A stretch of DNA of 64,000 nucleotides, taken from IMG/VR virus record IMGVR_UViG_3300032285_003957, positions 32,001 to 96,000 of that record. The stretch is one strand, 5' to 3'. The notes beneath the pieces are model-generated. The model had not been told where the DNA came from. It made no database searches and saw nothing but the letters and a program-made list of their open reading frames with translations. The translations under genes were made by a program, and so were the position numbers. The first letter of the stretch is position 1. Every line of letters starts with the position of its first letter. Below are positions 27,000 to 38,446 of this stretch, piece after piece. This DNA comes from a virus (lineage: Duplodnaviria > Caudoviricetes).

Positions 27000-27807
27000 A
27001 AAACACTGAGAATACATGTCTTAACGAAACTCTTTAAAAGGATTATTTGATTCCCTTCGTTTCCACTAACTTTTGATTAGTAAGTTTCAGTCACGGCCAA
27101 TTAGATTAACCAATCCTTTCGCAATATCCTACTCTTTTAATACTCATTACTCATCAAATCTGCCGACCTGATTCAACCTTGCGGGTTTAGAGAACTTTCT
27201 CAAAAATCATATTGGGCTTGAGACCCTTTATGGCTGCGAACCCCTCGCAACTAAGTAGTGACCTATCGGACACTGCGGACGAACACTTTTTCTTGTTATA
27301 ATTTTAGTTGTTAAACCGCTATTAACAAAATTTAGTTTCCGAATTTGGGAAAGTAGTGGTTCGTCACCTAGCCAAGCCACCTTTTGAGCGACTCGATACT
27401 AAACTACTCTCTGTAACATCCCTGCTACCATATTTTTGGACTCCTTCAAAACTAAACCCTTGGTAGAGTTTAATAAAGGATGATAACAGCACCACCTGTT
27501 TTTCACCATACCTTTCGGTTTTAAGATTCCCATTATATTGAATCACGCAATGATATAGTCGGATAACTATACTTCTTACAATAACTCTATGGATTATTCT
27601 TATTGATGTTCCCATCTCAACCGAACAACTCGGATTGCTCGGTCATCAAACCACTTTCGCTACAGTGTTACCCTCACTACTTAAGGTTCAATGATATTCC
27701 ACTTGCCTACTCGAGCTCCATTACTGAAGCCGCAACTTACCCCAACCAAGGGTTTGTCACTTTATCCCACTTTCGTGGTTTATTTTAATCGACCATAGGC
27801 GGCCAAT
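27000..27807 (-). ncRNA. approximately 800-nt structured ncRNA, probably GOLLD-like
   Basis: no credible ORF, GC-enriched, many hairpins with GNRA loops, own promoter and terminator, next to a tRNA array; 3' hairpin GACA-UGUAUUCUCAG-UGUU resembles my recollection of the GOLLD 3' end. Confidence 0.6.
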
Positions 27808-27842
27808 ATTTTTAAATCAAAGAACTATTCTTGTTTCTTTTA

Positions 27843-27850
27843 CAAAGATA
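27843..27850 (-). promoter_or_regulatory. Bacteroidota-type -7 box (TATCTTTG) for the large ncRNA
   Basis: TAnnTTTG match. Confidence 0.7.
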
Positions 27851-27905
27851 TAAAAAATATTTCAAAAAAAGAAATGTTTTTTAAACTTTTTCTATTTTAT
27901 TTTTT

Positions 27906-28103
27906 TTAAGTTGTTTTTTTTGACGCAACTTTCTCACTTGTTTGTGATTTATAATTTGGATTCTTATAAAGTTTATATTCAGTTTTTGGTGCGAAAGCCC
28001 AATTACCTCCTTTAACTCTTAATTCCGCTTCATTATCGTCAGTTCTTAACATTTCACCGATTTCGTGTCCTTTACTTGCTTTGATTAATTTAATACATTT
28101 CAT
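27906..28103 (-). CDS. hypothetical protein
   Basis: 65-aa ORF; TATCTTTG at 28131-28138. Confidence 0.6.
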   Translation of the reverse strand: MKCIKLIKASKGHEIGEMLRTDDNEAELRVKGGNWAFAPKTEYKLYKNPNYKSQTSEKVASKKTT

Positions 28104-28162
28104 AGTTTACCTCCATGTTTTAGTTATAATCAAAGATACAAAATAAATTTCAAAAAACAAAA

Positions 28163-28624
28163 TTAAATCCTTACTAAATGATTTGCTGCGTATGTCATCA
28201 ACGCACCTAAATGTTTGTATCTAACTTTATAACCCATCCCTTCAACCATACCAACTGCTTGTCTTAAAACAGAATTAGATTTGAACTTAGGATCAGGATT
28301 TAAATCGATATCAATCCATTGAGGTTTTGGTAATCCATTTTCTTTTAGATATTCCGCAATTTCAATTGACTTCCAAACTTCCGCAAGCAATCTGTTCGGT
28401 GTATTTCTTTCCATAGGTTCGGTTTCACGCGTGCATAACACGTGAGCACCTTTACCTTTTACATAAAGAGCAATAACAACACCATAGATTGTTTTTTTAT
28501 TTCCATAACATTGGGAATCAGAGCCAATGAGAATTTCCACATTCTCTCTTGTTGCGACATACTCTCTTATGTAATCTATTACATTTGGAATTGGAGTTCC
28601 ATAGAGAGTTCTAAATTTTTTCAT
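28163..28624 (-). CDS. DUF458/RNase H-like family protein
   Basis: ILIGSDSQ, EVWKSIEIA, IDIDLN motifs. Confidence 0.75.
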   Translation of the reverse strand: MKKFRTLYGTPIPNVIDYIREYVATRENVEILIGSDSQCYGNKKTIYGVVIALYVKGKGAHVLCTRETEPMERNTPNRLLAEVWKSIEIAEYLKENGLPKPQWIDIDLNPDPKFKSNSVLRQAVGMVEGMGYKVRYKHLGALMTYAANHLVRI

Positions 28625-28653
28625 TACCTTTTCATTTTATTATAATTAGTTTG

Positions 28654-28825
28654 CTGTGGTAGCAGGAGTCGAACCATGCAGGTGGAGATTCGATTAGTAA
28701 CAAAGCGCTTGCAAGCCGGTGGTCTACCCCGATATTACTAATCTATTTCTTTGTCCACGCCCGGGAGACAACCGGGTGCGTTTGCCGAGGCCATAACAGA
28801 GACAGCCAATTTTCGCCATACCACA
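28654..28825 (-). ncRNA. 172-nt tRNA-like RNA with expanded D-loop and very large variable region
   Basis: TGTGGTA/TACCACA acceptor, GCG/CGC D-stem, CCCGG/CCGGG stem, GGTTCGACTCC T-arm. Confidence 0.7.
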
Positions 28826-28886
28826 ATATAAGGACCCAGTACCTCTTATGCTTTCACTCACCTGAGTCCAACGTGAGATAAGGTTG

Positions 28887-28976
28887 CAGAGAGTGAGGGG
28901 TTCGAACCCTCGCGCCGATTTAACTCGACCTAACAGTTTAGCAAACTGCCCCCTTCACCAACTTGGGTAACTCTCT
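28887..28976 (-). tRNA. tRNA-Ser(GCT)
   Basis: cloverleaf, loop TT-GCT-AA, long variable arm. Confidence 0.92.
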
Positions 28977-28977
28977 A

Positions 28978-29250
28978 TTAGTAGATGCTGTGTCTATCTT
29001 CTTCGTTTAATAACCCTTTACCAATATCAAACTTTTCAGCTCTTCTTTTTGCTTCTTCAGCTTCTTTAACCCAACGAATCCAAGTTAATGAAATATCAAT
29101 AGGTGCTAACACCCAAGCCATAACAATAACCATTATCGTGTCCAATTCTGCTGAATTTGAGGTTACACTTCCATCGTAGCGTTGTTTGTATTTACTAAAC
29201 AATTGATAAAAACAATACACAACGCAAATCAAATAATACGTAATTAACAT
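28978..29250 (-). CDS. small membrane protein (2 TM)
   Basis: start moved to ATG 29250 outside tRNA-Gln; two hydrophobic segments. Confidence 0.6.
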   Translation of the reverse strand: MLITYYLICVVYCFYQLFSKYKQRYDGSVTSNSAELDTIMVIVMAWVLAPIDISLTWIRWVKEAEEAKRRAEKFDIGKGLLNEEDRHSIY

Positions 29251-29265
29251 AAATAAAAATTTAAG

Positions 29266-29337
29266 TTGTCCCCCAGGGAATCGAACCCCACTTATCCGGA
29301 CCAAAACCGGATGTAATAACCGATATACGAGAGGACA
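29266..29337 (-). tRNA. tRNA-Gln(TTG)
   Basis: cloverleaf, TCCGG-TTTTGGT-CCGGA. Confidence 0.9.
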
Positions 29338-29416
29338 ATAATCTCAGGCATTCTACTTCCCGCAGCACGAAATTGTATCTTACTTAGCCCACCGTTAGCG
29401 GTATGGGAACCTGAGT

Positions 29417-29491
29417 TGGAGCAGATGAGAGGAATCGAACCTCCGTCTCCTACTTGGAAGGAAGGAGTAATGACCATTATACGACATCTGC
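29417..29491 (-). tRNA. tRNA-Gly(TCC), CCA encoded
   Basis: cloverleaf, loop CT-TCC-AA, U73. Confidence 0.92.
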
Positions 29492-29590
29492 ATTCATAGC
29501 AGTTATGTGAGCGCCCAACTCACAATACCACTACGTTTTAATGGATGAAAAACATCTGCTTTTCTTTCGGACTTCCATTGGAGTCCCATG

Positions 29591-29662
29591 AGCTCAGTAA
29601 CAGACTCGAACTGTTGTCTAATGATTACAAATCACTTGTTCTACCGACTGAACTAACCGAGC
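29591..29662 (-). tRNA. tRNA-Thr(TGT)
   Basis: cloverleaf, loop TT-TGT-AA. Confidence 0.9.
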
Positions 29663-29785
29663 AATTATTGGAACTTTAGAAGGTATTCCAACTGATGGTT
29701 TATGACTTTACCACACCACGATTCGCGAGCTGTAAGACCCCAATCATTGATACTCTTCTAACGCTTACACTTCAAGTATCTAGTG

Positions 29786-29858
29786 AGCGGAAGACCAGGC
29801 TCGAACTGGCCACCCCGACCTTGGCAAGGTCGTGCTCTACCGAATGAGCTACTTCCGC
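29786..29858 (-). tRNA. tRNA-Gly(GCC)
   Basis: canonical cloverleaf, CT-GCC-AA-type loop, U73. Confidence 0.95.
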
Positions 29859-29864
29859 TTGTTG

Positions 29865-29936
29865 TAGTCTCTGAGAATTTTGAAATCCCGACCCTCTCCA
29901 TGTAAGGGAGATGCTCTTCCTCTGAGCTAAGAGACT
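29865..29936 (-). tRNA. tRNA-Val(TAC), atypical T-arm
   Basis: loop CT-TAC-AT; T-arm GGGAT-TTCAAAA-TTCTC. Confidence 0.85.
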
Positions 29937-29937
29937 A

Positions 29938-30014
29938 TGGTGGACCAAACAGGGCTCGAACCTGTGACCTTGGCATTATGAGTGCCCTGCTCTAACCATC
30001 TGAGCTATAAGTCC
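29938..30014 (-). tRNA. tRNA(CAT), probably Ile2 (lysidine type), CCA encoded
   Basis: loop CT-CAT-AA, G1-C72; the cognate leader contains ATA, and other CAT tRNAs lie in the second array. Confidence 0.8.
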
Positions 30015-30021
30015 AATAAGG

Positions 30022-30127
30022 TGCCGAAGGAGGGATTTATACCCACACGCAGGTCATTTCGAACTCTGCTCCTTCTAGAATACAGCGCGTCTAACAGGTG
30101 GCCACCCGTCTATTCCGCCACTTCGGC
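30022..30127 (-). ncRNA. 106-nt Leu-type tRNA-like RNA with D-loop hairpin insertion and disrupted anticodon/T loops
   Basis: GCCGAAG/CTTCGGC acceptor, GCG/CGC D-stem, inserted GACGGGT-GGCC-ACCTGTT, T-loop TATAAAT. Confidence 0.65.
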
Positions 30128-30132
30128 ATGTG

Positions 30133-30215
30133 TGAGAGTGGACGGATTCGAACCGCCGAAGTCTAAGACTCCTGATTTACAGTCAGGTGCCAATTACCGC
30201 ATTGACAACACTCCC
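30133..30215 (-). tRNA. tRNA-Tyr(GTA)
   Basis: loop CT-GTA-AA, long variable arm. Confidence 0.9.
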
Positions 30216-30220
30216 ATTTG

Positions 30221-30301
30221 TGACCAAGGAGAGATTCGAACTCTCACGACTTACGTCATTGGTTCCTAAGACCAACGTGTCTACCGTTCCACCACTCGGC
30301 C
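30221..30301 (-). tRNA. tRNA-Leu(TAG)
   Basis: loop CT-TAG-GA, long variable arm, A73. Confidence 0.92.
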
Positions 30302-30308
30302 ATTGTTG

Positions 30309-30380
30309 CGCTGATGGAGAATTACGATATCTCAACCTATTGATTAACAGTCAATTGCTCTGCCGTTGAGCTACATCAGC
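30309..30380 (-). tRNA. tRNA-Asn(GTT), atypical T-arm
   Basis: loop CT-GTT-AA, G73; T-arm GAGAT-ATCGTAA-TTCTC. Confidence 0.85.
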
Positions 30381-30385
30381 TTTTG

Positions 30386-30459
30386 TTGGGAATGCAGGAT
30401 TCGAACCTACGGCCTCTTGGTCCCAAACCAAGCGCGATACCGGACTACGCTAATTCCCA
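30386..30459 (-). tRNA. tRNA-Pro(TGG)
   Basis: loop TT-TGG-GA. Confidence 0.92.
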
Positions 30460-30465
30460 TTTTAG

Positions 30466-30539
30466 TGATTCCGTTTGGATTCGAACCAAAGACCCACATC
30501 TTAGAAGGATGTTGCTCTATCCAACTGAGCTACGGAACC
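30466..30539 (-). tRNA. tRNA-Arg(TCT)
   Basis: loop CT-TCT-AA. Confidence 0.93.
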
Positions 30540-30540
30540 A

Positions 30541-30975
30541 TTATTTAATATTTTTTGCTCGATATGTTTCCGTTTGTGAATGACAATTAGGACATAACAT
30601 TCTTAAATTTTCTAATTTATGATTTGTTCGATTCCCATCGATATGGTCTAATTCCATATTTAATTTTTTACCATTCCATTCTTCAATGTCACATATAAAA
30701 CATTTGTTTTCGATTATTTTTTCTTTTAATAATCTATTTTTTAATTTGAATGTTTGGAAATGTGGATGTTTACCTTCCAATATTTCCTGTAAATCTACTT
30801 TAGGTGGGACAATCTTATTTGTTCCTTTTCCTGATTGATTCGTTACGTAACAACCAAATTTAATTGCATACTTTTTAAAAGTATTAAAATGTAAATCTAA
30901 TTTACTTGCTGCTTCAGCCATTGATTTAGATTCTTGACAGATTTTTATAAAATCGTTTTGATTAAAATGTTTCAT
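30541..30975 (-). CDS. HNH endonuclease inserted in the tRNA array
   Basis: CFIC, ELDHIDG, NLRMLCPNCHSQT; TATTTAT at 30980-30986. Confidence 0.9.
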   Translation of the reverse strand: MKHFNQNDFIKICQESKSMAEAASKLDLHFNTFKKYAIKFGCYVTNQSGKGTNKIVPPKVDLQEILEGKHPHFQTFKLKNRLLKEKIIENKCFICDIEEWNGKKLNMELDHIDGNRTNHKLENLRMLCPNCHSQTETYRAKNIK

Positions 30976-31031
30976 ATTAATAAATATCATACACTTTAGA
31001 AAAAACCATTTTAGTGTCTATCTTTTTCATG

Positions 31032-31116
31032 TACTTCCGACCAGAATCGAACTGGTACGAACTTTCAGTTCATAGCATTTTAAGTGCTACGTGTCTACCA
31101 GTTCCACCACGGAAGC
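31032..31116 (-). tRNA. tRNA-Leu(TAA)
   Basis: loop CT-TAA-AA, long variable arm. Confidence 0.93.
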
Positions 31117-31169
31117 GTTTTTTCCCAATATGTCAAAGAACAATACTAATATAAAAAATAAAATTCACT

Positions 31170-31208
31170 AAAACAAAAAACCCGAACTTTTTTAATTTGT
31201 TCGGGTTT
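31170..31208 (-). terminator. attenuator terminator ahead of tRNA array B
   Basis: AAACCCGAAC/GTTCGGGTTT stem followed by TTTGTTTT. Confidence 0.85.
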
Positions 31209-31230
31209 CAATATTCTAATTTAAATTATT

Positions 31231-31338
31231 TTAAATAAGTGTGTCCGAACTTAAAGCGCATGTAGGTTGCACAAGATAGCCATTACCATTTGTTAACGGT
31301 CTACTCGTAATCCCCAATATGTTATTTAAGTTCTTCAT
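31231..31338 (-). CDS. leader peptide B, 35 aa: MKNLNNILGITSRPLTNGNGYLVQPTCALSSDTLI
   Basis: manually translated; lies between promoter box and terminator; codons match array B tRNAs. Confidence 0.8.
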   Translation of the reverse strand: MKNLNNILGITSRPLTNGNGYLVQPTCALSSDTLI

Positions 31339-31356
31339 CGTTTTTATAAGTATAAG

Positions 31357-31364
31357 CAAATATA
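31357..31364 (-). promoter_or_regulatory. Bacteroidota-type -7 box (TATATTTG) for leader B/tRNA array B
   Basis: TAnnTTTG match 19 nt upstream of the leader ATG. Confidence 0.7.
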
Positions 31365-31405
31365 CAAAAAGTTTCAATAATAAAAAAATAATCATAAAAA
31401 TATTT

Positions 31406-31564
31406 TTACCAACGTTTCATTGGCGGTGGTGAAAATCGTGGTTGATAGTATCTGTGCACATGATACATTCCGTTCCATGGATGACGATGTGTATAAATTG
31501 CACGTTCGTAATAACATCCACTGAATGTCACTGCGATTAACAATAAGAATAATAACTTTTTCAT
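31406..31564 (-). CDS. small lipoprotein (52 aa)
   Basis: manually translated: MKKLLFLLLIAVTFSG-C lipobox; TATTTAT upstream. Confidence 0.65.
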   Translation of the reverse strand: MKKLLFLLLIAVTFSGCYYERAIYTHRHPWNGMYHVHRYYQPRFSPPPMKRW

Positions 31565-31578
31565 ATTAATAAATATTT

Positions 31579-32310
31579 TTAGTTTTTAACTAATTTAGTT
31601 CTTGATATAAAATTATAACTCTCTTCAAATGTTACAGGCTTTTCAATCGCACGTCTTTTTATATTAAGGACATATAACGCATATGAAAGTGCAGCACCTT
31701 CGCCATGACCATATATTGTTCTTCGATATAAATTCTTATCATATAATGATGCATATTCAAACACTGGTTTTATTTTTTCCAACTCATATTGAATTTTATC
31801 GTAATCTAATCCAACAGGGAAATAAAACAATTGTTCAAACATTGTTTCTAATTTTGATGGTTCGGTTCCTTCCAATGTGAGAAACTCAATTATTGGACGA
31901 GCCCATTTATCAACGTTTATGTCAGGTAGATATTTCCATGATTTCCATTCACCGTTAACATTAACGGGCCAAAAAGTCAAATATAAAACCTCATCAAAAC
32001 TTTCAAGTGTTCGATATTTTTCATCGCTTAAAAATACGTTTAGGCTATCACAATCAACATATGTAACATCAGTTTTTAATTCCTTAATTAATTTAAAACT
32101 AAAAAAGAATTTATCAAAATAGCTGAATATTTTTTTTTCGTATTGATATGTTGTGCAACCAACCCCTTCAAATTCTTGAGGTGTGTCTGTTAATATTCTA
32201 ACATCAAAATTGAATTCATTAACTAAACGCTTAACATTATCAATGCATTGACTTGCATATGATAAACCGTCATCGTCCACACCGACACATATTAATGCTA
32301 ATACTTTCAT
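31579..32310 (-). CDS. glycosyltransferase-like hypothetical protein (paralog 2)
   Basis: FSYFDKFFFSFKLIKEL, YVDCD, GHGEG shared with the adjacent paralog. Confidence 0.65.
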   Translation of the reverse strand: MKVLALICVGVDDDGLSYASQCIDNVKRLVNEFNFDVRILTDTPQEFEGVGCTTYQYEKKIFSYFDKFFFSFKLIKELKTDVTYVDCDSLNVFLSDEKYRTLESFDEVLYLTFWPVNVNGEWKSWKYLPDINVDKWARPIIEFLTLEGTEPSKLETMFEQLFYFPVGLDYDKIQYELEKIKPVFEYASLYDKNLYRRTIYGHGEGAALSYALYVLNIKRRAIEKPVTFEESYNFISRTKLVKN

Positions 32311-32312
32311 GT

Positions 32313-33053
32313 TTAAATCAATGTTTTACTTTTGTCTTGGAATATGACGTCATATCTTTCTCTAAATAACATTTGATCCTCAAGTTTTTCTTTACCAATA
32401 TTATTAACATCTAAAGCGTATGAAAGAGCTAAACCTTCACCATGTCCAAATATTAATCGGTTATTTAAATTTATAGAATACAACGACATATATTCAAACA
32501 CAGGTTTTATTTTTTCCAATTCATATTGAACATTATCGTAGTCCAAACCAACGGGAAAATACAATAAACGTTCGTGCATTGTCTCTAACTTAGATATATC
32601 ATATTTTTCCATTTCAAAAAATTCCAATAACGGATGTGACCAAATATCAAACTTAAAATCTTTTAAAAATTGATATGTCACCCATTCTTTGCTATTTTTA
32701 ACGGACCAATATGTTAAATATAACACCTTATTTTGACTTTCTAAATTTCTAAATTTTTCAATTTTAAGTAAATAATCGATACAATCACAATCAATGTAAG
32801 TTACCGATTTATTTAACTCCTTAATTAACTTAAATGAAAAAAAGAACTTATCAAAGTAGCTGAATATTTTCTTATCGTATTTGTAAATTGAACATCCAAG
32901 ACCTTCAAATTCTTTTGGTGTGTCAGTTAATAATCTAACATCGAAACCAAAAACATCAATCAATTGCTTTACATTCTCAACACATTGGGTGTAGTATGGA
33001 ACACCTTTGTAATCATTCCCAACAGATATAATTGCAACTGTTTTCATCTTCAT
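32313..33053 (-). CDS. glycosyltransferase-like hypothetical protein (paralog 1)
   Basis: tandem paralog with YIDCD DxD motif. Confidence 0.65.
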   Translation of the reverse strand: MKMKTVAIISVGNDYKGVPYYTQCVENVKQLIDVFGFDVRLLTDTPKEFEGLGCSIYKYDKKIFSYFDKFFFSFKLIKELNKSVTYIDCDCIDYLLKIEKFRNLESQNKVLYLTYWSVKNSKEWVTYQFLKDFKFDIWSHPLLEFFEMEKYDISKLETMHERLLYFPVGLDYDNVQYELEKIKPVFEYMSLYSINLNNRLIFGHGEGLALSYALDVNNIGKEKLEDQMLFRERYDVIFQDKSKTLI

Positions 33054-33056
33054 ATG

Positions 33057-33128
33057 TACTCCCAACGGGATTCGAACCCGTGACTCATCCGTGAAAGGGA
33101 CGTGACTTAACCGCTTGTCGATGGGAGC
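33057..33128 (-). tRNA. tRNA-Glu(TTC)
   Basis: loop CT-TTC-AC. Confidence 0.92.
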
Positions 33129-33330
33129 GTTTCGGGACGAGTCAGGTTAACTCTTGTGTCCCTACTTAATAGTTGTGTTTAGAGGGAAGTCCAAAACACG
33201 GTATTCACCAAAAGGGACTTTACTTTCGATTATCGCTGAAACTTTTAACTACGCTCAATGTATCTTTTAATTTGTTTCGTTTAACGTCCAAACAAATGTC
33301 CCAGTTGAGCGGGACAAAAAAGACGACCTG

Positions 33331-33462
33331 TGGGTTAGGAGTGGGAATCGAACCCATAACGATGCGTAATCTTCTACTTCAACTCCTTGTACTTCAGAGT
33401 CCGTCACCGCGTCCCGTATGTAGCCTCCATACGGTGCATCTTCCATTTCTGCTACCTACCCA
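33331..33462 (-). ncRNA. 132-nt tRNA-like RNA with long variable region
   Basis: TGGGTAGG/CCTAACCCA ends, GCA/TGC D-stem, CCGTATG/CATACGG stem, GGGTTCGATTCCC T-arm. Confidence 0.65.
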
Positions 33463-33467
33463 AATTT

Positions 33468-33610
33468 GCAATCAAGATAGGATTTGAACCTATAAGCCGT
33501 TTTCGTGTTCTTCCATTCCACTCAACGACATACCTATGTGATCCTGCGGGAAGAAATCGTCCATCTTGCGATGCCTACATAGGTGTGTATCACACTACAC
33601 TTCTTGATTG
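33468..33610 (-). ncRNA. 143-nt tRNA-like RNA with expanded anticodon arm
   Basis: CAATCAAGA/TCTTGATTG ends, ATAGG-TTCAAAT-CCTAT T-arm, ACCTATGT/ACATAGGT stem. Confidence 0.65.
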
Positions 33611-33613
33611 TTG

Positions 33614-33701
33614 CGGAGAGAGTAGGATTCGAACCCACGGACCCCTTTCGAGATCTTCAGTTTTCAAGACTGACGCAATCGGCCAACTCTGCCATCTCTC
33701 C
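33614..33701 (-). tRNA. tRNA-Ser(TGA)
   Basis: loop CT-TGA-AA, long variable arm, G73. Confidence 0.95.
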
Positions 33702-33923
33702 AAATTCCCCACATTGAGATTACTTGTGAGTAGTTATTTCGGTTTTCTATTTCTTAAAAACCTGTGAGGCATCCCTCATTAAAACATCCGACCTAATACT
33801 TGGGGGAGAGTAGGTTCACAATCCTTATTCCCAACGAGTAGTTCTTAAGATGACACTACTAACGTCTAATCCATTGTTAAATGAGTCTTGGATCAAAGAC
33901 TGCTGAGTATCTCTTACTCATTG

Positions 33924-33997
33924 CGGAACGGACGAGACTCGAACTCGCGACCCCTACAGTGACAGTGTAGTATTCTAACCAACTGAACTACCGCTCC
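33924..33997 (-). tRNA. tRNA-Asp(GTC)
   Basis: loop CT-GTC-AC, G73. Confidence 0.95.
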
Positions 33998-34083
33998 GTG
34001 TTTGATTCTAACTCACCTTAAATTGCACCATCCGAGTCACTGCTCTGGTTGACAAAGTCCTCGTTGAGTTAGTCTCAAAATTT

Positions 34084-34203
34084 TTACTTTTTTCTACGCT
34101 GTCTTAAAGCTGAACCTGCAACAGATTTGTAAGCTTTTGTTGTTTTCTTACTTCTCAATGCGCTACTTGCTTTCTTAGCAACTCTTCTTGACGTTCTTGC
34201 CAT
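34084..34203 (-). CDS. 39-aa highly basic peptide MARTSRRVAKKASSALRSKKTTKAYKSVAGSALRQRRKK
   Basis: manually translated, clean ATG-TAA between tRNAs. Confidence 0.6.
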   Translation of the reverse strand: MARTSRRVAKKASSALRSKKTTKAYKSVAGSALRQRRKK

Positions 34204-34218
34204 AGTTAAAAGTTTTAG

Positions 34219-34290
34219 TTGCGAGAGAGGGAATCGAACCCCCGACCTAAAGGTTATGAGCCTTCCGAGCTACCGCTGCTCTATCTCGCG
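34219..34290 (-). tRNA. initiator tRNA-fMet(CAT)
   Basis: C1-A72 mismatch, loop CT-CAT-AA. Confidence 0.9.
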
Positions 34291-34302
34291 ATGTTTGTTT
34301 CA

Positions 34303-34310
34303 CAAAGATA
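34303..34310 (-). promoter_or_regulatory. internal Bacteroidota-type promoter (TTTG-N18-TATCTTTG) before tRNA-fMet
   Basis: both -33 and -7 elements present. Confidence 0.7.
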
Positions 34311-34352
34311 AGAAATATTAATGATATACAAAAATATTTCAAATCTTTTTTG

Positions 34353-34420
34353 TTGCGGGGCCAGGAGTCGAACCTGGAACACTCGGCTTATGAGGCCGGT
34401 GGGAAACCATTCTCCCCGCA
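34353..34420 (-). tRNA. tRNA-Met(CAT) with reduced D-arm (68 nt)
   Basis: good acceptor, anticodon and T arms; D-arm only TGG-TTTC-CCA. Confidence 0.7.
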
Positions 34421-34425
34421 ATGTG

Positions 34426-34497
34426 GGTGTATGGACGGTATCGAACCGTCTTCCCGAGCTCCACAAACTCGTGCTTCACCTTAAAGCTTCAAACACC
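34426..34497 (-). tRNA. tRNA-His(GTG)
   Basis: loop TT-GTG-GA; G-1 opposite C73. Confidence 0.9.
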
Positions 34498-34564
34498 GTG
34501 TGTGGAATCGAACCACTTTCCCATCTCCACGACAGGCGATACGTCCATTATCCTTTACCGGGTG
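34494..34564 (-). pseudogene. degenerate tRNA-like remnant (His-GTG-like)
   Basis: intact GTGG-TTCGATT-CCAC T-arm but poor acceptor and anticodon stems. Confidence 0.35.
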
Positions 34565-34635
34565 AGTCAAGTACTGGAGTCGAACCAATCTAAAAAGTTT
34601 TGCAGACTTTCACCTAACCGCTCGGCCAACCTGAC
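34565..34635 (-). tRNA. tRNA-Cys(GCA)
   Basis: loop CT-GCA-AA, U73. Confidence 0.92.
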
Positions 34636-34694
34636 TTGTTTGTTCACTTTTTTCATCTGTTCACGGTCCGTGAACAATCAAATTTTGTGAACAG

Positions 34695-34766
34695 AGGTCT
34701 CTAAAGGATTTGAACCTTTACTAAAACATTCGTAGTGTTTCGTGCTATCCGTTACACCAAGAGACC
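34695..34766 (-). tRNA. tRNA-Arg(ACG)
   Basis: loop CT-ACG-AA. Confidence 0.9.
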
Positions 34767-34769
34767 TAT

Positions 34770-34958
34770 TTACTTCCATTGAGTCTTCCTTTGTTTTTTC
34801 CACGTTCTAAATTCTCTCCATTTGTGATTTGGTAGGTTACCATGATTAAAATTCCAACCATAATCCCAATCAAGTTCATATTTGTCCGGTGCTGTAACAA
34901 TTTTATACTCTTTGTTATGAGTGGTTTTTTGGCTTACCCTGCCTTTTACTGGTTTCAT
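34770..34958 (-). CDS. small basic protein ending WKKQRKTQWK
   Basis: 62-aa ORF preceded by repeat copy 1. Confidence 0.65.
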   Translation of the reverse strand: MKPVKGRVSQKTTHNKEYKIVTAPDKYELDWDYGWNFNHGNLPNHKWREFRTWKKQRKTQWK

Positions 34959-34961
34959 GCT

Positions 34962-34999
34962 ATTAGGTTTACCTAATGCATATCAAATTCTTTTTTCAT
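34962..34999 (-). repeat. approximately 40-bp direct repeat, copy 1 (hairpin ATTAGG-TAAA-CCTAAT)
   Basis: near-identical to 35178-35217. Confidence 0.8.
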
Positions 35000-35000
35000 T

Positions 35001-35174
35001 TTATTTCCATTTAGTTTTTCTGTGTTGTTTCCAACACTTATCAATTTTTTTTCTTGAACGATTGCAACCTTTATTAGGTCCACAGATAGGACAAGATAAT
35101 TCTCTACTCAACCAAACACGTTTAAATGTTTTACGGTCCGTAATTGTTTTGATGTTTCTTCTTGCTTTTGACAT
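35001..35174 (-). CDS. 57-aa basic Cys-rich protein ending WKQHRKTKWK
   Basis: manually translated; CPIC..C..C; C-terminus paralogous to 34770-34958. Confidence 0.65.
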   Translation of the reverse strand: MSKARRNIKTITDRKTFKRVWLSRELSCPICGPNKGCNRSRKKIDKCWKQHRKTKWK

Positions 35175-35177
35175 ATG

Positions 35178-35217
35178 ATTAGGATTTTACCTAATGCATG
35201 TCGAATTCTTTTTTCAT
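35178..35217 (-). repeat. approximately 40-bp direct repeat, copy 2
   Basis: tgaaaaaagaattcgacatgcattaggtaaaatcctaat. Confidence 0.8.
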
Positions 35218-35219
35218 GG

Positions 35220-35462
35220 TTACTTATATTTTCTTATTGTTTTAAAAACTTTTGTTATATCGGTCAATTCCATTACTTGGTCGTTTCTAATTGGATAAAA
35301 TGCAATTGTAAAACCGTGGTTTCCAAGATAGAAATCTTCCTTCATTATTCTATTGCCATTTACCTTTTCAAGATATATCCAAGGATAGTTACCAACCAAT
35401 TCAACGTTGATTCCTATCTTCTTTAATCTTGGGACTAACCTGTTTATTACGTTGTCTTCCAT
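35220..35462 (-). CDS. hypothetical protein
   Basis: start moved to ATG 35462 outside tRNA-Trp. Confidence 0.65.
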   Translation of the reverse strand: MEDNVINRLVPRLKKIGINVELVGNYPWIYLEKVNGNRIMKEDFYLGNHGFTIAFYPIRNDQVMELTDITKVFKTIRKYK

Positions 35463-35476
35463 AACTTTATTTTTAG

Positions 35477-35547
35477 CACGGGTGGAGAGATTCGAACTCC
35501 CATCGATGGTTTTGGAGACCATAATTCTGCCGTTGAACTACACCCGC
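35477..35547 (-). tRNA. tRNA-Trp(CCA)
   Basis: loop CT-CCA-AA, G73. Confidence 0.93.
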
Positions 35548-35554
35548 GTATTTG

Positions 35555-35629
35555 TGACCCCTTTGGGACTCGAACCCAAAACCCACTGGTTAAAAGCCAG
35601 TTACTCTAATCCGATTGAGCTAAGAGGTC
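35555..35629 (-). tRNA. tRNA-Lys(TTT)
   Basis: loop CT-TTT-AA. Confidence 0.93.
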
Positions 35630-35638
35630 TTACTCTTG

Positions 35639-35764
35639 TCACTTTCCATAGTTGTTGTTTTTAATTTGTTCAAATAACTTATTATGTCTTATCTTTTTAT
35701 CTTCTTGCATCTTCTTTATCAATGCAATAAAATCTTTGCTTGCTTTTACTTTAATCGTTTTCAT
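35639..35764 (-). CDS. 41-aa basic hypothetical peptide
   Basis: manually translated: MKTIKVKASKDFIALIKKMQED... Confidence 0.45.
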   Translation of the reverse strand: MKTIKVKASKDFIALIKKMQEDKKIRHNKLFEQIKNNNYGK

Positions 35765-35778
35765 AAAATACCTTTTAG

Positions 35779-35851
35779 TGGAAATGGTTGGTTTCGACCC
35801 AACTCCTGAAGATTTTCAGTCTTCCGCTTCTACCAAGTTAGCTTCATTTCC
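35779..35851 (-). tRNA. tRNA-Phe(GAA)
   Basis: loop CT-GAA-AA; T-loop GTCGAAA. Confidence 0.9.
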
Positions 35852-35856
35852 TATTG

Positions 35857-35929
35857 TTCTTAGAGATGGGTTCGAACCATCAACCTTCCGCGTATCAGGC
35901 GGATGCTCTCACCATTGAGCTACCTAAGA
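35857..35929 (-). tRNA. tRNA-Ile(GAT)
   Basis: loop CT-GAT-AC. Confidence 0.92.
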
Positions 35930-35934
35930 ATATG

Positions 35935-36007
35935 TGGAGTAAGTGGAACTCGAATCCACAACCTCAAGAATGCAAATCTTGTGCTCATCCGCTAGAGCTT
36001 TTACCCC
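35935..36007 (-). tRNA. tRNA-Ala(TGC)
   Basis: loop TT-TGC-AT, G3-U70. Confidence 0.92.
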
Positions 36008-36009
36008 AT

Positions 36010-36046
36010 AAAACAAAAAACCCCGAGATTTTTAAGTCTCAGGGTT
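36010..36046 (-). terminator. attenuator terminator ahead of tRNA array A
   Basis: AACCCTGAGA/TCTCGGGGTT stem (U-G wobble fits the minus strand) followed by TTTTGTTTT. Confidence 0.85.
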
Positions 36047-36068
36047 CTTCAATATTGTTAGTTAAAAA

Positions 36069-36167
36069 TTACCAACCACTTGCTTCACTGAGACTATTGG
36101 ACATAGCACGCTCATCCGCCCATTTTGAACAGATAATAAACGACATTGTATGTTTTGTTTGTCTCAT
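36069..36167 (-). CDS. leader peptide A, 32 aa: MRQTKHTMSFIICSKWADERAMSNSLSEASGW
   Basis: manually translated; lies between promoter box and terminator; codons match array A tRNAs. Confidence 0.8.
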   Translation of the reverse strand: MRQTKHTMSFIICSKWADERAMSNSLSEASGW

Positions 36168-36194
36168 CGAAGTTTTTTTTAATTTAATCTTTTA

Positions 36195-36202
36195 CAAAGA
36201 TA
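36195..36202 (-). promoter_or_regulatory. Bacteroidota-type -7 box (TATCTTTG) for leader A/tRNA array A
   Basis: TAnnTTTG match. Confidence 0.7.
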
Positions 36203-36290
36203 ACAATAAGTATCCGAAAAAACAAGAAAAGTTCAAAATATTTTTTTTCTTAAAATAGAATATAGAGATTGCCTAATGATATTTATCAGT

Positions 36291-36788
36291 ATGACAAAAA
36301 TATTGAAGGTATCTCTCCTACCTTTATTCATGCTGTTTATGGGCCAAACCCACGCCCAAAAAGTATATCTTGATAAGGTAGAGAACAAAGTTGTAATGGG
36401 TAAAATGGCCGGTAACCGTAATCTTGGTTTCGGTTGTAAAAACATTTTCTTAGAAATTTTACAGGACAAAAATTATGATATTACCGAAACTGTGGCAGAC
36501 GCTGACATGGTATTTAAGGCTGATATTATGTATTTTGATGTAAACAGAACAAAAAGAAATGTGTCTGTATTCCATTCCGATGTGGAAGAGACTTTGGTTG
36601 TAATCAAGGGGTATCTCTATGACAAAAGTGGTAAAAAAATTAAAGAGGCTGTTGCAGAAGAGTCAAGTTCAGAAATATCCACATCAACACTTATAACAGA
36701 TGAAGGAAGTAGCTCCATAAATCAACAAGCTTTATCGCAAGCCATTAAAAAAACTTGCGTTACATTAATAAATAAAATTTTTAAATAA
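36291..36788 (+). CDS. secreted protein (signal peptide), possibly CsgG/LptE-like fold
   Basis: signal peptide ending THA-Q; TATTTAT at 36280. Confidence 0.6.
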   Translation: MTKILKVSLLPLFMLFMGQTHAQKVYLDKVENKVVMGKMAGNRNLGFGCKNIFLEILQDKNYDITETVADADMVFKADIMYFDVNRTKRNVSVFHSDVEETLVVIKGYLYDKSGKKIKEAVAEESSSEISTSTLITDEGSSSINQQALSQAIKKTCVTLINKIFK

Positions 36789-36790
36789 AC

Positions 36791-38446
36791 ATGAAAAAAA
36801 TAATAAATTTAATTGTATTAACAACATTAATACCATTCATTTCATTTGGCCAATTAACTGTAAACCAAACAGTAACCCCAACAACAGGGTTAAAAGTTGG
36901 TGATACCGTTTCGGTAAAGTATACTGTGGCAAGAGGAACTACGACACCTCGTTATTTTTGGTTAAGATACCAATATAATAACAAAGCTTTAGCTTATGTT
37001 TCAACAACATTCTCACAAGGAACTTCAGTTCAAACATATTACACAAACTGGTCTTCTTATAAATTCACAGCAAATGCAAATAAAGATGCTACCGATTTGT
37101 ATGAGCAATATAAATTAACACCATGGGCGTATACAACCAATGCTGATTGGAATGTTGGTCAGTTAACAGTTCAAAGAACTGACGCAGCAATTAATGGAGA
37201 CATTGCAACTCAAAAATATGTAATCAAAGATTTAGGTGATTATACAAACATCCATAAAATAGATTTATCCTATTCAATTGATGGAACAGGTGCTAATATT
37301 AGCCCAATCACAACTAATCCTGGTACAATGTCTTTATCAAACGTTGTTGGTAACACATCTCAATTTAAAGTAAGAGTTTTATTCCCAACAGGATACGATA
37401 TCACTTCTCATAGTGTGTCTTTATTACCATTAAAAACAACAGGTGAGGTTGATTGGACCGCAAGAGCCATTGCAACTAAACCATTGGATGCAAGTGGTGA
37501 AGCCATTTTTACAACGGAGGCTAAAGTAGGTGACACGTTTGCTGTATTTGTAAATGCGGCATTACAGAAAACATTTATGAATAACATCATAACAGTATCA
37601 GACGCTTATAAAGCATTCTTAGGTGTTTCCCAAACAGATATCAATGGTAACGCAACTTACTTTACATATCCTTCATTAGAGAAGAAAATTGGTTTAATTA
37701 CAAACGGAAAAACAGCATTTAGCGAAAGCGACTCATACAATTTATTTGCAAATGTTATGGGTATTGATGTTAGTTCTGTTGCAATGATTCCATCAAATGC
37801 TGCACCCGTAAATGGTGTGGTTAACTTCAAATGGTATAATGGTTTATTAAATCAAAGTTGGTTAGACGGCGTTCCAACATATAAAACAAAAGTAACATCA
37901 TCAAATCAAGCGGTTGATATGGTATTTGCATGGGGCGGTGATTTAGACTGGTCTCATTCATCTTCACCAACAGAAATTGCATCAAGAATTTCAAGTGGTA
38001 ATTACGCTAACTCGGTTAACCCATCAAACGGAACCATCAAAACCATGTCTTTAACAACTATGTCATATACACCAACAATAGAAAAAGCAACATTAGGTTT
38101 AGCTTCAACAATTGTTAATGGTAAAGTTGTATTAACAGGAACTTTAACTAAAGATGGTTTAGCAGGTTTAGAAGTTATTTTACAATATGATAACACAAAA
38201 TTAACATTTGATAATATTGCGTTTGATGCGGGTGCAAGTGTAACTAACTTTTCAACAAACACAGATGGTAGATTAACATTTGGTTCTATGGATCAAACAA
38301 AAACTGCAAGAATTAAAATAGGAACACCATATAAATTAACATTTACACCAAAAGAAACATTAACAAATACAGCGGGATTATTCTACACAGTTTTAGCTGA
38401 CGCTGTTGATGGAAATGGAAATAAAATCAACTTAACGGTTGAATAA
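36791..38446 (+). CDS. secreted protein with cohesin-like domains and a degenerate dockerin-like segment
   Basis: signal peptide; LEVILQYDNTKLTF..LTFGSMD; ITVSDAYKAF. Confidence 0.6.
   Translation: MKKIINLIVLTTLIPFISFGQLTVNQTVTPTTGLKVGDTVSVKYTVARGTTTPRYFWLRYQYNNKALAYVSTTFSQGTSVQTYYTNWSSYKFTANANKDATDLYEQYKLTPWAYTTNADWNVGQLTVQRTDAAINGDIATQKYVIKDLGDYTNIHKIDLSYSIDGTGANISPITTNPGTMSLSNVVGNTSQFKVRVLFPTGYDITSHSVSLLPLKTTGEVDWTARAIATKPLDASGEAIFTTEAKVGDTFAVFVNAALQKTFMNNIITVSDAYKAFLGVSQTDINGNATYFTYPSLEKKIGLITNGKTAFSESDSYNLFANVMGIDVSSVAMIPSNAAPVNGVVNFKWYNGLLNQSWLDGVPTYKTKVTSSNQAVDMVFAWGGDLDWSHSSSPTEIASRISSGNYANSVNPSNGTIKTMSLTTMSYTPTIEKATLGLASTIVNGKVVLTGTLTKDGLAGLEVILQYDNTKLTFDNIAFDAGASVTNFSTNTDGRLTFGSMDQTKTARIKIGTPYKLTFTPKETLTNTAGLFYTVLADAVDGNGNKINLTVE

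Follow-up and report, generated by a model that had tools for sequence, protein, structure and literature searches.

Multivalent leader-peptide attenuators are found in enterobacterial amino-acid operons (ilvL of ilvGMEDA and thrL; also trpL, hisL, leuL and pheL), and the pheM leader attenuator controls pheST. T-box riboswitches need no ribosome: they bind uncharged tRNA by direct contact with one specifier codon and the T-box bulge. To our knowledge, leader-peptide attenuation is a textbook mechanism for amino-acid biosynthesis and a few synthetase genes and is not known for tRNA genes, and essentially nothing is known about the regulation of phage tRNA arrays. In bacilli, a leader with His codons precedes hisS paralogues (PMC2965389), and the leader peptides mentioned in a 2010 survey of attenuators all belong to amino-acid or synthetase genes (PMC2965389). 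Our full-text literature searches turned up no account of tRNA genes under attenuation. Here we analyze a phage locus that is best read as a ribosome-mediated (leader-peptide) transcription attenuator gating a tRNA operon, and to this reading we give a probability of roughly 0.7. The parts and the logic of the attenuator would be as known, but the regulated genes are tRNAs, and the leader appears to list the codons of the tRNAs that lie behind it.

The window, that is the whole 64-kb stretch of DNA that was analyzed, is part of a 234-kb virus record (33% G+C) of an uncultured phage. It holds 26 tRNA genes, all on the minus strand between 28886 and 36007, of which ARAGORN finds 25 and Rfam adds one more, a CAT tRNA (34353-34420). 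The genes form two blocks, each with its own leader:

33056-36007, minus strand: array A, upstream, with tRNAs Ala, Ile-GAT, Phe, Lys, Trp, Arg-ACG, Cys, His, Met, fMet-like, Asp, Ser-TGA and Glu
31116-28886, minus strand: array B, downstream, with tRNAs Leu-TAA, Arg-TCT, Pro, Asn, Leu-TAG, Tyr, a CAT tRNA, Val, Gly-GCC, Thr, Gly-TCC, Gln and Ser-GCT

Small ORFs are scattered among the tRNA genes of array A, and divergent plus-strand genes begin at 36276. The thirteenth tRNA of array A (CAT, 34353-34420, minus strand) scores 35.7 bits with Rfam, has an odd D arm and escapes ARAGORN at default settings. In array B, the CAT tRNA is probably a reader of ATA because its best match is E. coli tRNA-Ile. 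In all relatives, array A opens with an unusual tRNA-Ala, which ARAGORN detects only at relaxed thresholds.

Several other elements adjoin or interrupt the arrays. Directly downstream of array B, at 27003-27411 on the minus strand, there is a full-length GOLLD RNA (302 bits with Rfam RF02032). GOLLD, often together with tmRNA, also adjoins the tRNA arrays of relatives, and in a distant clade it is found upstream of the leader; a full-text literature search on GOLLD, tRNA and phage returned nothing relevant. An ORF of 149 aa (30541-30990, minus strand) interrupts array B between tRNA-Leu(TAA) and tRNA-Arg(TCT). It has weak matches to HNH endonucleases, below the Pfam cut-offs, and is absent from this position in several relatives. 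Arrays A and B are separated by a tandem pair of paralogous proteins, 243 and 250 aa long (31579-33065, minus strand). The 243-aa copy, the one that was scanned, has no Pfam match, and as a query for relatives it gave 0 matches in viral contigs. The motif GTTCTTTGACAT(A/T)(T/G)TGG occupies the spacer just before tRNA-Leu(TAA) (31140-31122, minus strand) and recurs after tRNA-Ala in L044, L054, L059 and L061; it could be a processing or binding site. Finally, an RNase H-like protein (28163-28624, minus strand; PF04308, E = 1.4e-17) adjoins the tRNA arrays in 40 related viral contigs and may take part in processing tRNA or RNA.

Relatives were collected with the RNase H-like protein (PF04308), which retrieved 40 viral loci, and with the leader-A core pattern, which added 23. 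The combined loci yielded 18 distinct versions of leader A and 13 of leader B. As to cultured relatives, a DNA search of a phage collection gave tRNA-level matches only, and a protein search gave no close one.

A separate observation concerns the cultured Caulobacter phage phiCbK (JX100813, 47000-52900; L069), in which annotated rho-independent terminators stand directly before tRNA blocks. A small ORF precedes each terminator and appears, by inspection, to be enriched in the amino acids of its block: gp083 lies before Pro/Lys/Leu/Ser, and an ORF with QFVRQIQVV before the Phe/Val/Ile/Gln block.

The region upstream of array A, and its sister upstream of array B, contain the following parts:

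36195-36226, minus strand: Bacteroidota-type promoter from sequence and motif scan, with cTTG (36226-36223), a 20-nt spacer and TAtcTTTG (36202-36195)
36161-36172, minus strand: region 1, CTTCGATGAGAC, which includes the start codon and pairs with 36094-36083 when ribosome-free (-12.0 kcal/mol)
36069-36167, minus strand: leader A ORF of 32 codons plus stop, which reads MRQTKHTMSFIICSKWADERAMSNSLSEASGW
36099-36155, minus strand: regulatory stretch, codons 5-23 of leader A, from a genome-wide six-frame scan
36115-36133, minus strand: inner hairpin TCTGTTCA-AAA-TGGGCGGA, codons 12-18 of leader A, from the RNAalifold consensus
36088-36095, minus strand: region 2, antiterminator 5' strand, AGTCTCAG, codons 25-27, the exact complement of CTGAGACT
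36035-36042, minus strand: region 3, antiterminator 3' strand, CTGAGACT, whose first 6 nt complete the terminator 5' arm and whose other 2 nt begin its loop
36010-36050, minus strand: intrinsic terminator A, with a stem-loop at 36050-36015 (-19.1 kcal/mol) and the T-tract TTTTTTGTTTT at 36020-36010
31176-31364, minus strand: sister module B, with its -7 box at 31364-31357, ORF at 31338-31231, GTTCGG at 31250-31245 and terminator at 31207-31176, preceding array B

The boxes of the leader A promoter, which we take to fit the Bacteroidota -33/-7 consensus, are both kept in 14 of the 18 aligned relatives. Between promoter and ORF lie about 20 nt of A-rich, untranslated sequence. A scan for sigma-70 promoters produced no more matches than in shuffled sequence and was unsuitable here; the Bacteroidota motif TTG...TAnnTTTG was used instead. 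The initial annotation of this DNA had reported the ORF at 36167-36069 with its codons 5-23, and the exact complementarity of AGTCTCAG to CTGAGACT over the terminator 5' arm and loop; the sequence agrees with both. It had also placed the end of the U-tract 3 nt before tRNA-Ala. The T-tract in fact ends at 36010 and tRNA-Ala starts at 36007, leaving a gap of 2 nt, and the accompanying claim that no room remains there for another promoter is borne out by the layout: promoter, ORF, terminator and tRNA follow one another without space for one.

The arrangement resembles that of the enterobacterial leader-peptide attenuators in its promoter-proximal short ORF with regulatory codons, in the competition of an antiterminator, made by the 3' portion of the ORF or by what directly follows it, with an intrinsic terminator, and in that the position of the ribosome would decide between them. 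It departs from them in several respects. The phage leader would regulate tRNAs and not biosynthetic enzymes. Where the enterobacterial leaders have runs of codons for one to three amino acids, the phage leader has one or two codons each for 12-13 tRNA species, a number that rises to about 22 in the distant clade. Its antiterminator strand is part of the ORF itself and ends 5-6 codons short of the stop, and the 1:2 helix is not conserved. Finally, the element sits in a phage with Bacteroidota-type promoters. With the pheM and hisS leaders it would share attenuation of the decoding machinery for the amino acid that is coded in the leader, but those leaders control synthetases and respond to a single amino acid, whereas the phage leader would gate tRNA genes and sense many species. 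T-box riboswitches likewise sense a specific tRNA state and operate a terminator/antiterminator switch before translation-related genes; unlike them, the phage leader has no T-box match in a permissive Rfam cmscan (E <= 1) and carries a conserved ORF of translated type instead. As in ermC/cat-type leader peptides, a ribosome stalled on a short ORF would reshape the downstream RNA; those, however, respond to drug-bound ribosomes and act mostly on translation initiation, while the phage element would act on transcription termination before tRNA genes.

We compared the codons of each leader with the tRNAs behind it, taking U34 to read whole four-codon boxes and I34 to read U, C and A. Eighteen of the 19 codons in the leader A stretch (codons 5-23) are read by array A, and all 12 of its elongator species are represented. 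The unmatched codon is ACA (Thr, codon 7). The earlier statement that ACA alone is unread by array A holds if U34 reads the full Ala and Ser-UCN boxes; under strict wobble it fails, with three leader A codons unmatched (GCT and TCC need U34 of the single Ala and Ser-UCN tRNAs). How unusual is such a stretch? Among the 170,815 stop-free 19-codon segments in the six frames of the 234-kb genome, leader A (KHTMSFIICSKWADERAMS) is the top scorer. All 12 array A species are covered in only 5 of the 170,815; the four of these with at least 16 of 19 codons from set A all overlap leader A, and the position of the fifth was not located. Leader B (NLNNILGITSRPLTNGNGYLVQPT) is the top of 143,291 24-codon segments for set B, with 23 of 24 codons matched and 13 of 13 species represented. 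The boundary between sets A and B is given by the position of leader B and not by our choice. Could the small ORF nevertheless be an ordinary small gene, or a chance ORF, with a constitutive terminator or insulator, and could its codon match be incidental, with the tRNAs coming from internal promoters or leaky read-through? That both leaders are the top segments of the genome for their own sets argues against this, and we regard it as improbable.

The split codon families of each leader agree with the isoacceptor encoded in its own array, and AGA is the Arg codon of leader B. Counts pooled over related sequences, which are not independent events, are for Ser (TCN : AGY) 47 : 0 in leader A and 6 : 13 in leader B, for Arg (CGN : AGR) 15 : 0 and 0 : 15, and for Ile (ATY : ATA) 33 : 0 and 3 : 21. 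This partition bears on a second alternative, in which the same RNA switch senses general translation capacity, amino-acid starvation or infection stage and not a specific tRNA pool. Read-through would then occur, for example, when ribosomes are scarce or translation is blocked, and the choice of codons would only tie the leader to the phage's own tRNAs. The single codon copies make for weak specificity and fit such a sensor; a partition of codons between A and B at the level of isoacceptors would, however, serve no purpose in it, and we consider it unlikely.

The content of leader A also varies with that of array A. Both relatives that have tRNA-Val in array A (L054 and L061) have Val codons in the center of leader A (KWAEVVDI and KWAEVADI). 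Thr codons within codons 5-23 number 2-4 when tRNA-Thr is in array A, and 1, 1, 1, 1, 1 and 3 when Thr is only in array B. In L020, L027, L044, L054 and L059, which carry Thr (L054 also Val) in array A, all central codons are matched. Because these Thr-bearing arrays leave no codon unmatched, the unmatched ACA in the window looks like a relic of an arrangement with Thr in array A. Tracking of Val and Thr would likewise be purposeless in a sensor of general translation capacity. At fine scale the tracking of Lys and Phe is imperfect: the central codons of L010 also match, but tRNA-Lys and tRNA-Phe are not detected there, yet one Lys and one Phe codon remain.

Distinct amino-acid variants of leader B fall within set B in 36 of 40 cases and outside it in 4, where a single-nucleotide-neighbour model expects 59% inside (p = 3e-6). 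The variants of leader A (18 in the set, 12 outside) show no significant bias (p = 0.10); most of those outside are Thr or Val, which some of the phages concerned carry in array A. The distant clade, whose marker protein is 56-60% identical, has one undivided array and one leader, which encodes 19-20 kinds of amino acid. That leader covers 21-22 of the 23-24 tRNA species downstream of it and is only moderately unusual against background (p about 0.001-0.04).

The leader A ORF is intact in all 18 distinct versions: it has 29-34 codons, its ATG never varies, and its indels keep the frame, being multiples of three. The terminator is likewise present in 18 of 18 (-15 to -20 kcal/mol, with a U-tract), and four of its pairs are doubly compensated across these sequences. 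Leader B has the same properties, ORF and terminator being intact in all 13 distinct versions, and in the distant clade both are intact in 6 of 6. In 12 of the 18 leader-A versions only a few nucleotides (about 2-5) separate the U-tract from tRNA-Ala, a spacing that speaks against an ordinary ORF with a constitutive terminator. Two relatives differ at the other end of the module: a 75-nt insert after the promoter (L010:2918-3091 and L012:2994-3167) lengthens leader A by 25 in-frame upstream codons (MRWTYWDCTSTHFIQTKKTKLKITS...).

The core of leader A is nearly invariant, synonymous sites included, which implies some extra constraint at the level of the RNA; perhaps this is a pause signal. Six of the eight pairs of the inner hairpin are invariant in all 18 sequences and thus offer no covariation, and we speculate that the hairpin (36133-36115) is an RNA polymerase pause hairpin. 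The invariance of the core at synonymous positions, together with the conserved hairpin, would also suit a switch that works without translation, in which uncharged tRNAs (in the manner of a T-box) or a phage protein bind the leader RNA and the "codons" are sites for pairing with anticodons. Such a switch would not account for the conservation of the ATG, the frame and the stop, nor for indels in multiples of three, and 12 to 24 different specifier sites would be without precedent. Moreover, the permissive Rfam scan (E <= 1, 27000-38000) gave only tRNAs and GOLLD nearby, with no T-box or other match over leader A (36007-36260). We therefore hold this alternative to be highly improbable.

Each of the 18 leader-A ORFs forms its most stable helix with the 5' arm of its own terminator from codon 24-25 onward, and in most of them this helix ends by codon 28. 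These duplexes have energies of -10 to -19 kcal/mol, with p from <0.001 to 0.12 against codon-order shuffles; the 8-bp complement of the window leader is reached in 1.4% of such shuffles. A single consensus antiterminator was unsuitable for counting pairs since its register differs by 2 columns between sequence classes, and we used duplexes for each sequence and a swap matrix instead. When every ORF is paired with every 5' arm, the matrix is block-diagonal, the ORFs pairing best within their own sequence class. Regions 2 and 3 carry compensatory changes across three sequence classes of leader A. The paired differences are AGTCTCAG/CTGAGACT, GTCTCGA/TCGGGAC, TCCCGAGGT/ACCTCGGGA, TCTCGAGGT/ACCTCGAGA (L054) and TTCCGAG/CTCGGAA (L048). 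Arm and complement differ again in the distant clade (GTCAGGG/CCCTGAC, GTTAGAGG/CCTCTAAC and GTTAGGGG/CCCCTAAC), with duplexes of -13.5 to -18.8 kcal/mol and shuffle p <= 0.016. In leader B, GTTCGG is retained in L022 despite a different reading frame there. As judged from these comparisons, the covariation in three leader families (leader A, leader B and the distant clade) is that expected of a functional alternative helix.

The peptide tails of the leaders vary while the RNA complementarity is kept. Both this and the retention of the same nucleotides in another frame in L022 are difficult to reconcile with an ordinary small gene. The initial annotation had read the locus as an attenuator, and the conserved ORF, the compensated terminator, the co-varying antiterminator and the codon content that tracks array content all favor that reading. 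The parts, their conservation and covariation, and the match of codons to tRNAs are direct observations on the DNA.

When ribosome-free, the window leader folds into a helix of the start-codon region with 36094-36083, plus the terminator. The 1:2, 2:3 and 3:4 helices of the window leader A have energies of -12.0, -10.8 and -19.1 kcal/mol, respectively, comparable in strength to the corresponding helices of the E. coli trp leader. The 1:2 helix, in which the start-codon region pairs with region 2, is present in the window but not conserved, being favored in only 6 of the 18 relatives. The remaining 12 form the antiterminator when ribosome-free, so that an absence of translation would also give read-through, as would be expected if the switch senses general translation capacity.

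We simulated the effect of the ribosome by blocking about 28 nt around it. As long as the terminator 3' arm has yet to be made, the 8-bp antiterminator is the fold of minimum free energy for an A site at most of codons 5-21 (not at codon 14). It does not form for an A site at codons 23-32. When the A site reaches the stop codon, the 8-mer lies uncovered and the antiterminator can form. Masking of leader B gives a similar result. Once the 3' arm has been made, the terminator is always favored thermodynamically, and the decision must therefore be kinetic, as in classical attenuators. The model of the initial annotation, in which a ribosome stalled at about codon 21 or earlier allows read-through and one that reaches the stop masks the antiterminator, agrees with the simulation in its first half and not in its second. 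The 8-mer ends 5-6 codons before the stop in the window, and the trailing edge of a ribosome on the stop codon would reach back some 12-15 nt from the P site, to about 36086-36089. Since a ribosome at the stop leaves the 8-mer without cover, blocking would have to be due to ribosomes still moving over codons 22-31, or to steric hindrance.

The attenuator may not be the only route into array A. The following element had been proposed earlier as an internal promoter and is a real match to the consensus, conserved in L004 and L013:

34303-34310, minus strand: candidate internal promoter, -7 box TAtcTTTG, 13 nt before tRNA-fMet

From there, fMet, Asp, Ser and Glu could be transcribed without the attenuator. 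Four relatives have an insert of 45-90 nt between terminator A and tRNA-Ala (L005:4880-4955, L010:3155-3233, L012:3231-3309 and L024:4690-4735) that ends in TTTGG(C/A)A.AATATAA(A)TG, and this insert may give those phages a further, non-canonical promoter past the attenuator. A TAtaTTTG box also follows terminator B in most relatives, though not in the window. These internal and post-terminator candidates are what one would expect if the leader were an ordinary ORF and the tRNAs had promoters of their own.

Under the leader-peptide attenuator that we favor, transcription would begin about 20 nt upstream of the 32-codon ORF, of which codons 5-23 hold one or two codons for each elongator tRNA of the array behind. 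If decoding is fast, the ribosome would cross codons 24-28, the antiterminator 5' strand, while RNA polymerase makes the terminator; the terminator would then fold, and transcription would halt 2 nt before tRNA-Ala. If a charged tRNA is scarce, the ribosome would linger at its codon, leaving the 8-mer free to pair with the terminator 5' arm, and transcription would read through into the array. The outcome would be a demand-driven, self-limiting supply of the phage's own tRNA set, governed by an OR-gate over 12-13 tRNA species. Because each tRNA has only one or two codons in the leader, sensitivity to a mild shortage is expected to be low. We infer the polarity of the switch, the physiological signal and the coupling of translation to transcription; such coupling in the presumed Bacteroidota host is an assumption of the model. 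The order of elements and the codon content suggest that the phage probably makes the array tRNAs only when ribosomes decode the listed codons slowly.

We lean towards the view that codon-enumerating leader attenuators are a widespread, undescribed class of phage regulators, tRNA-pool homeostats that would switch on each block only once its codons are decoded more slowly, with leader and array co-evolving as tRNA genes move between blocks. If this is true, the content of a leader would delimit tRNA transcription units in uncultured phages, and the element would be a compact, programmable part in which read-through reports the shortage of a chosen tRNA. With up to two dozen listed codons it would be the most multivalent attenuator described and would act as a sensor of the decoding capacity of the infected cell. 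The slowing could come from destruction of host tRNAs, whether by anticodon nucleases or by the phage itself, and the leaders would then provide a mechanistic link between phage tRNA arrays and host defences that deplete tRNAs.
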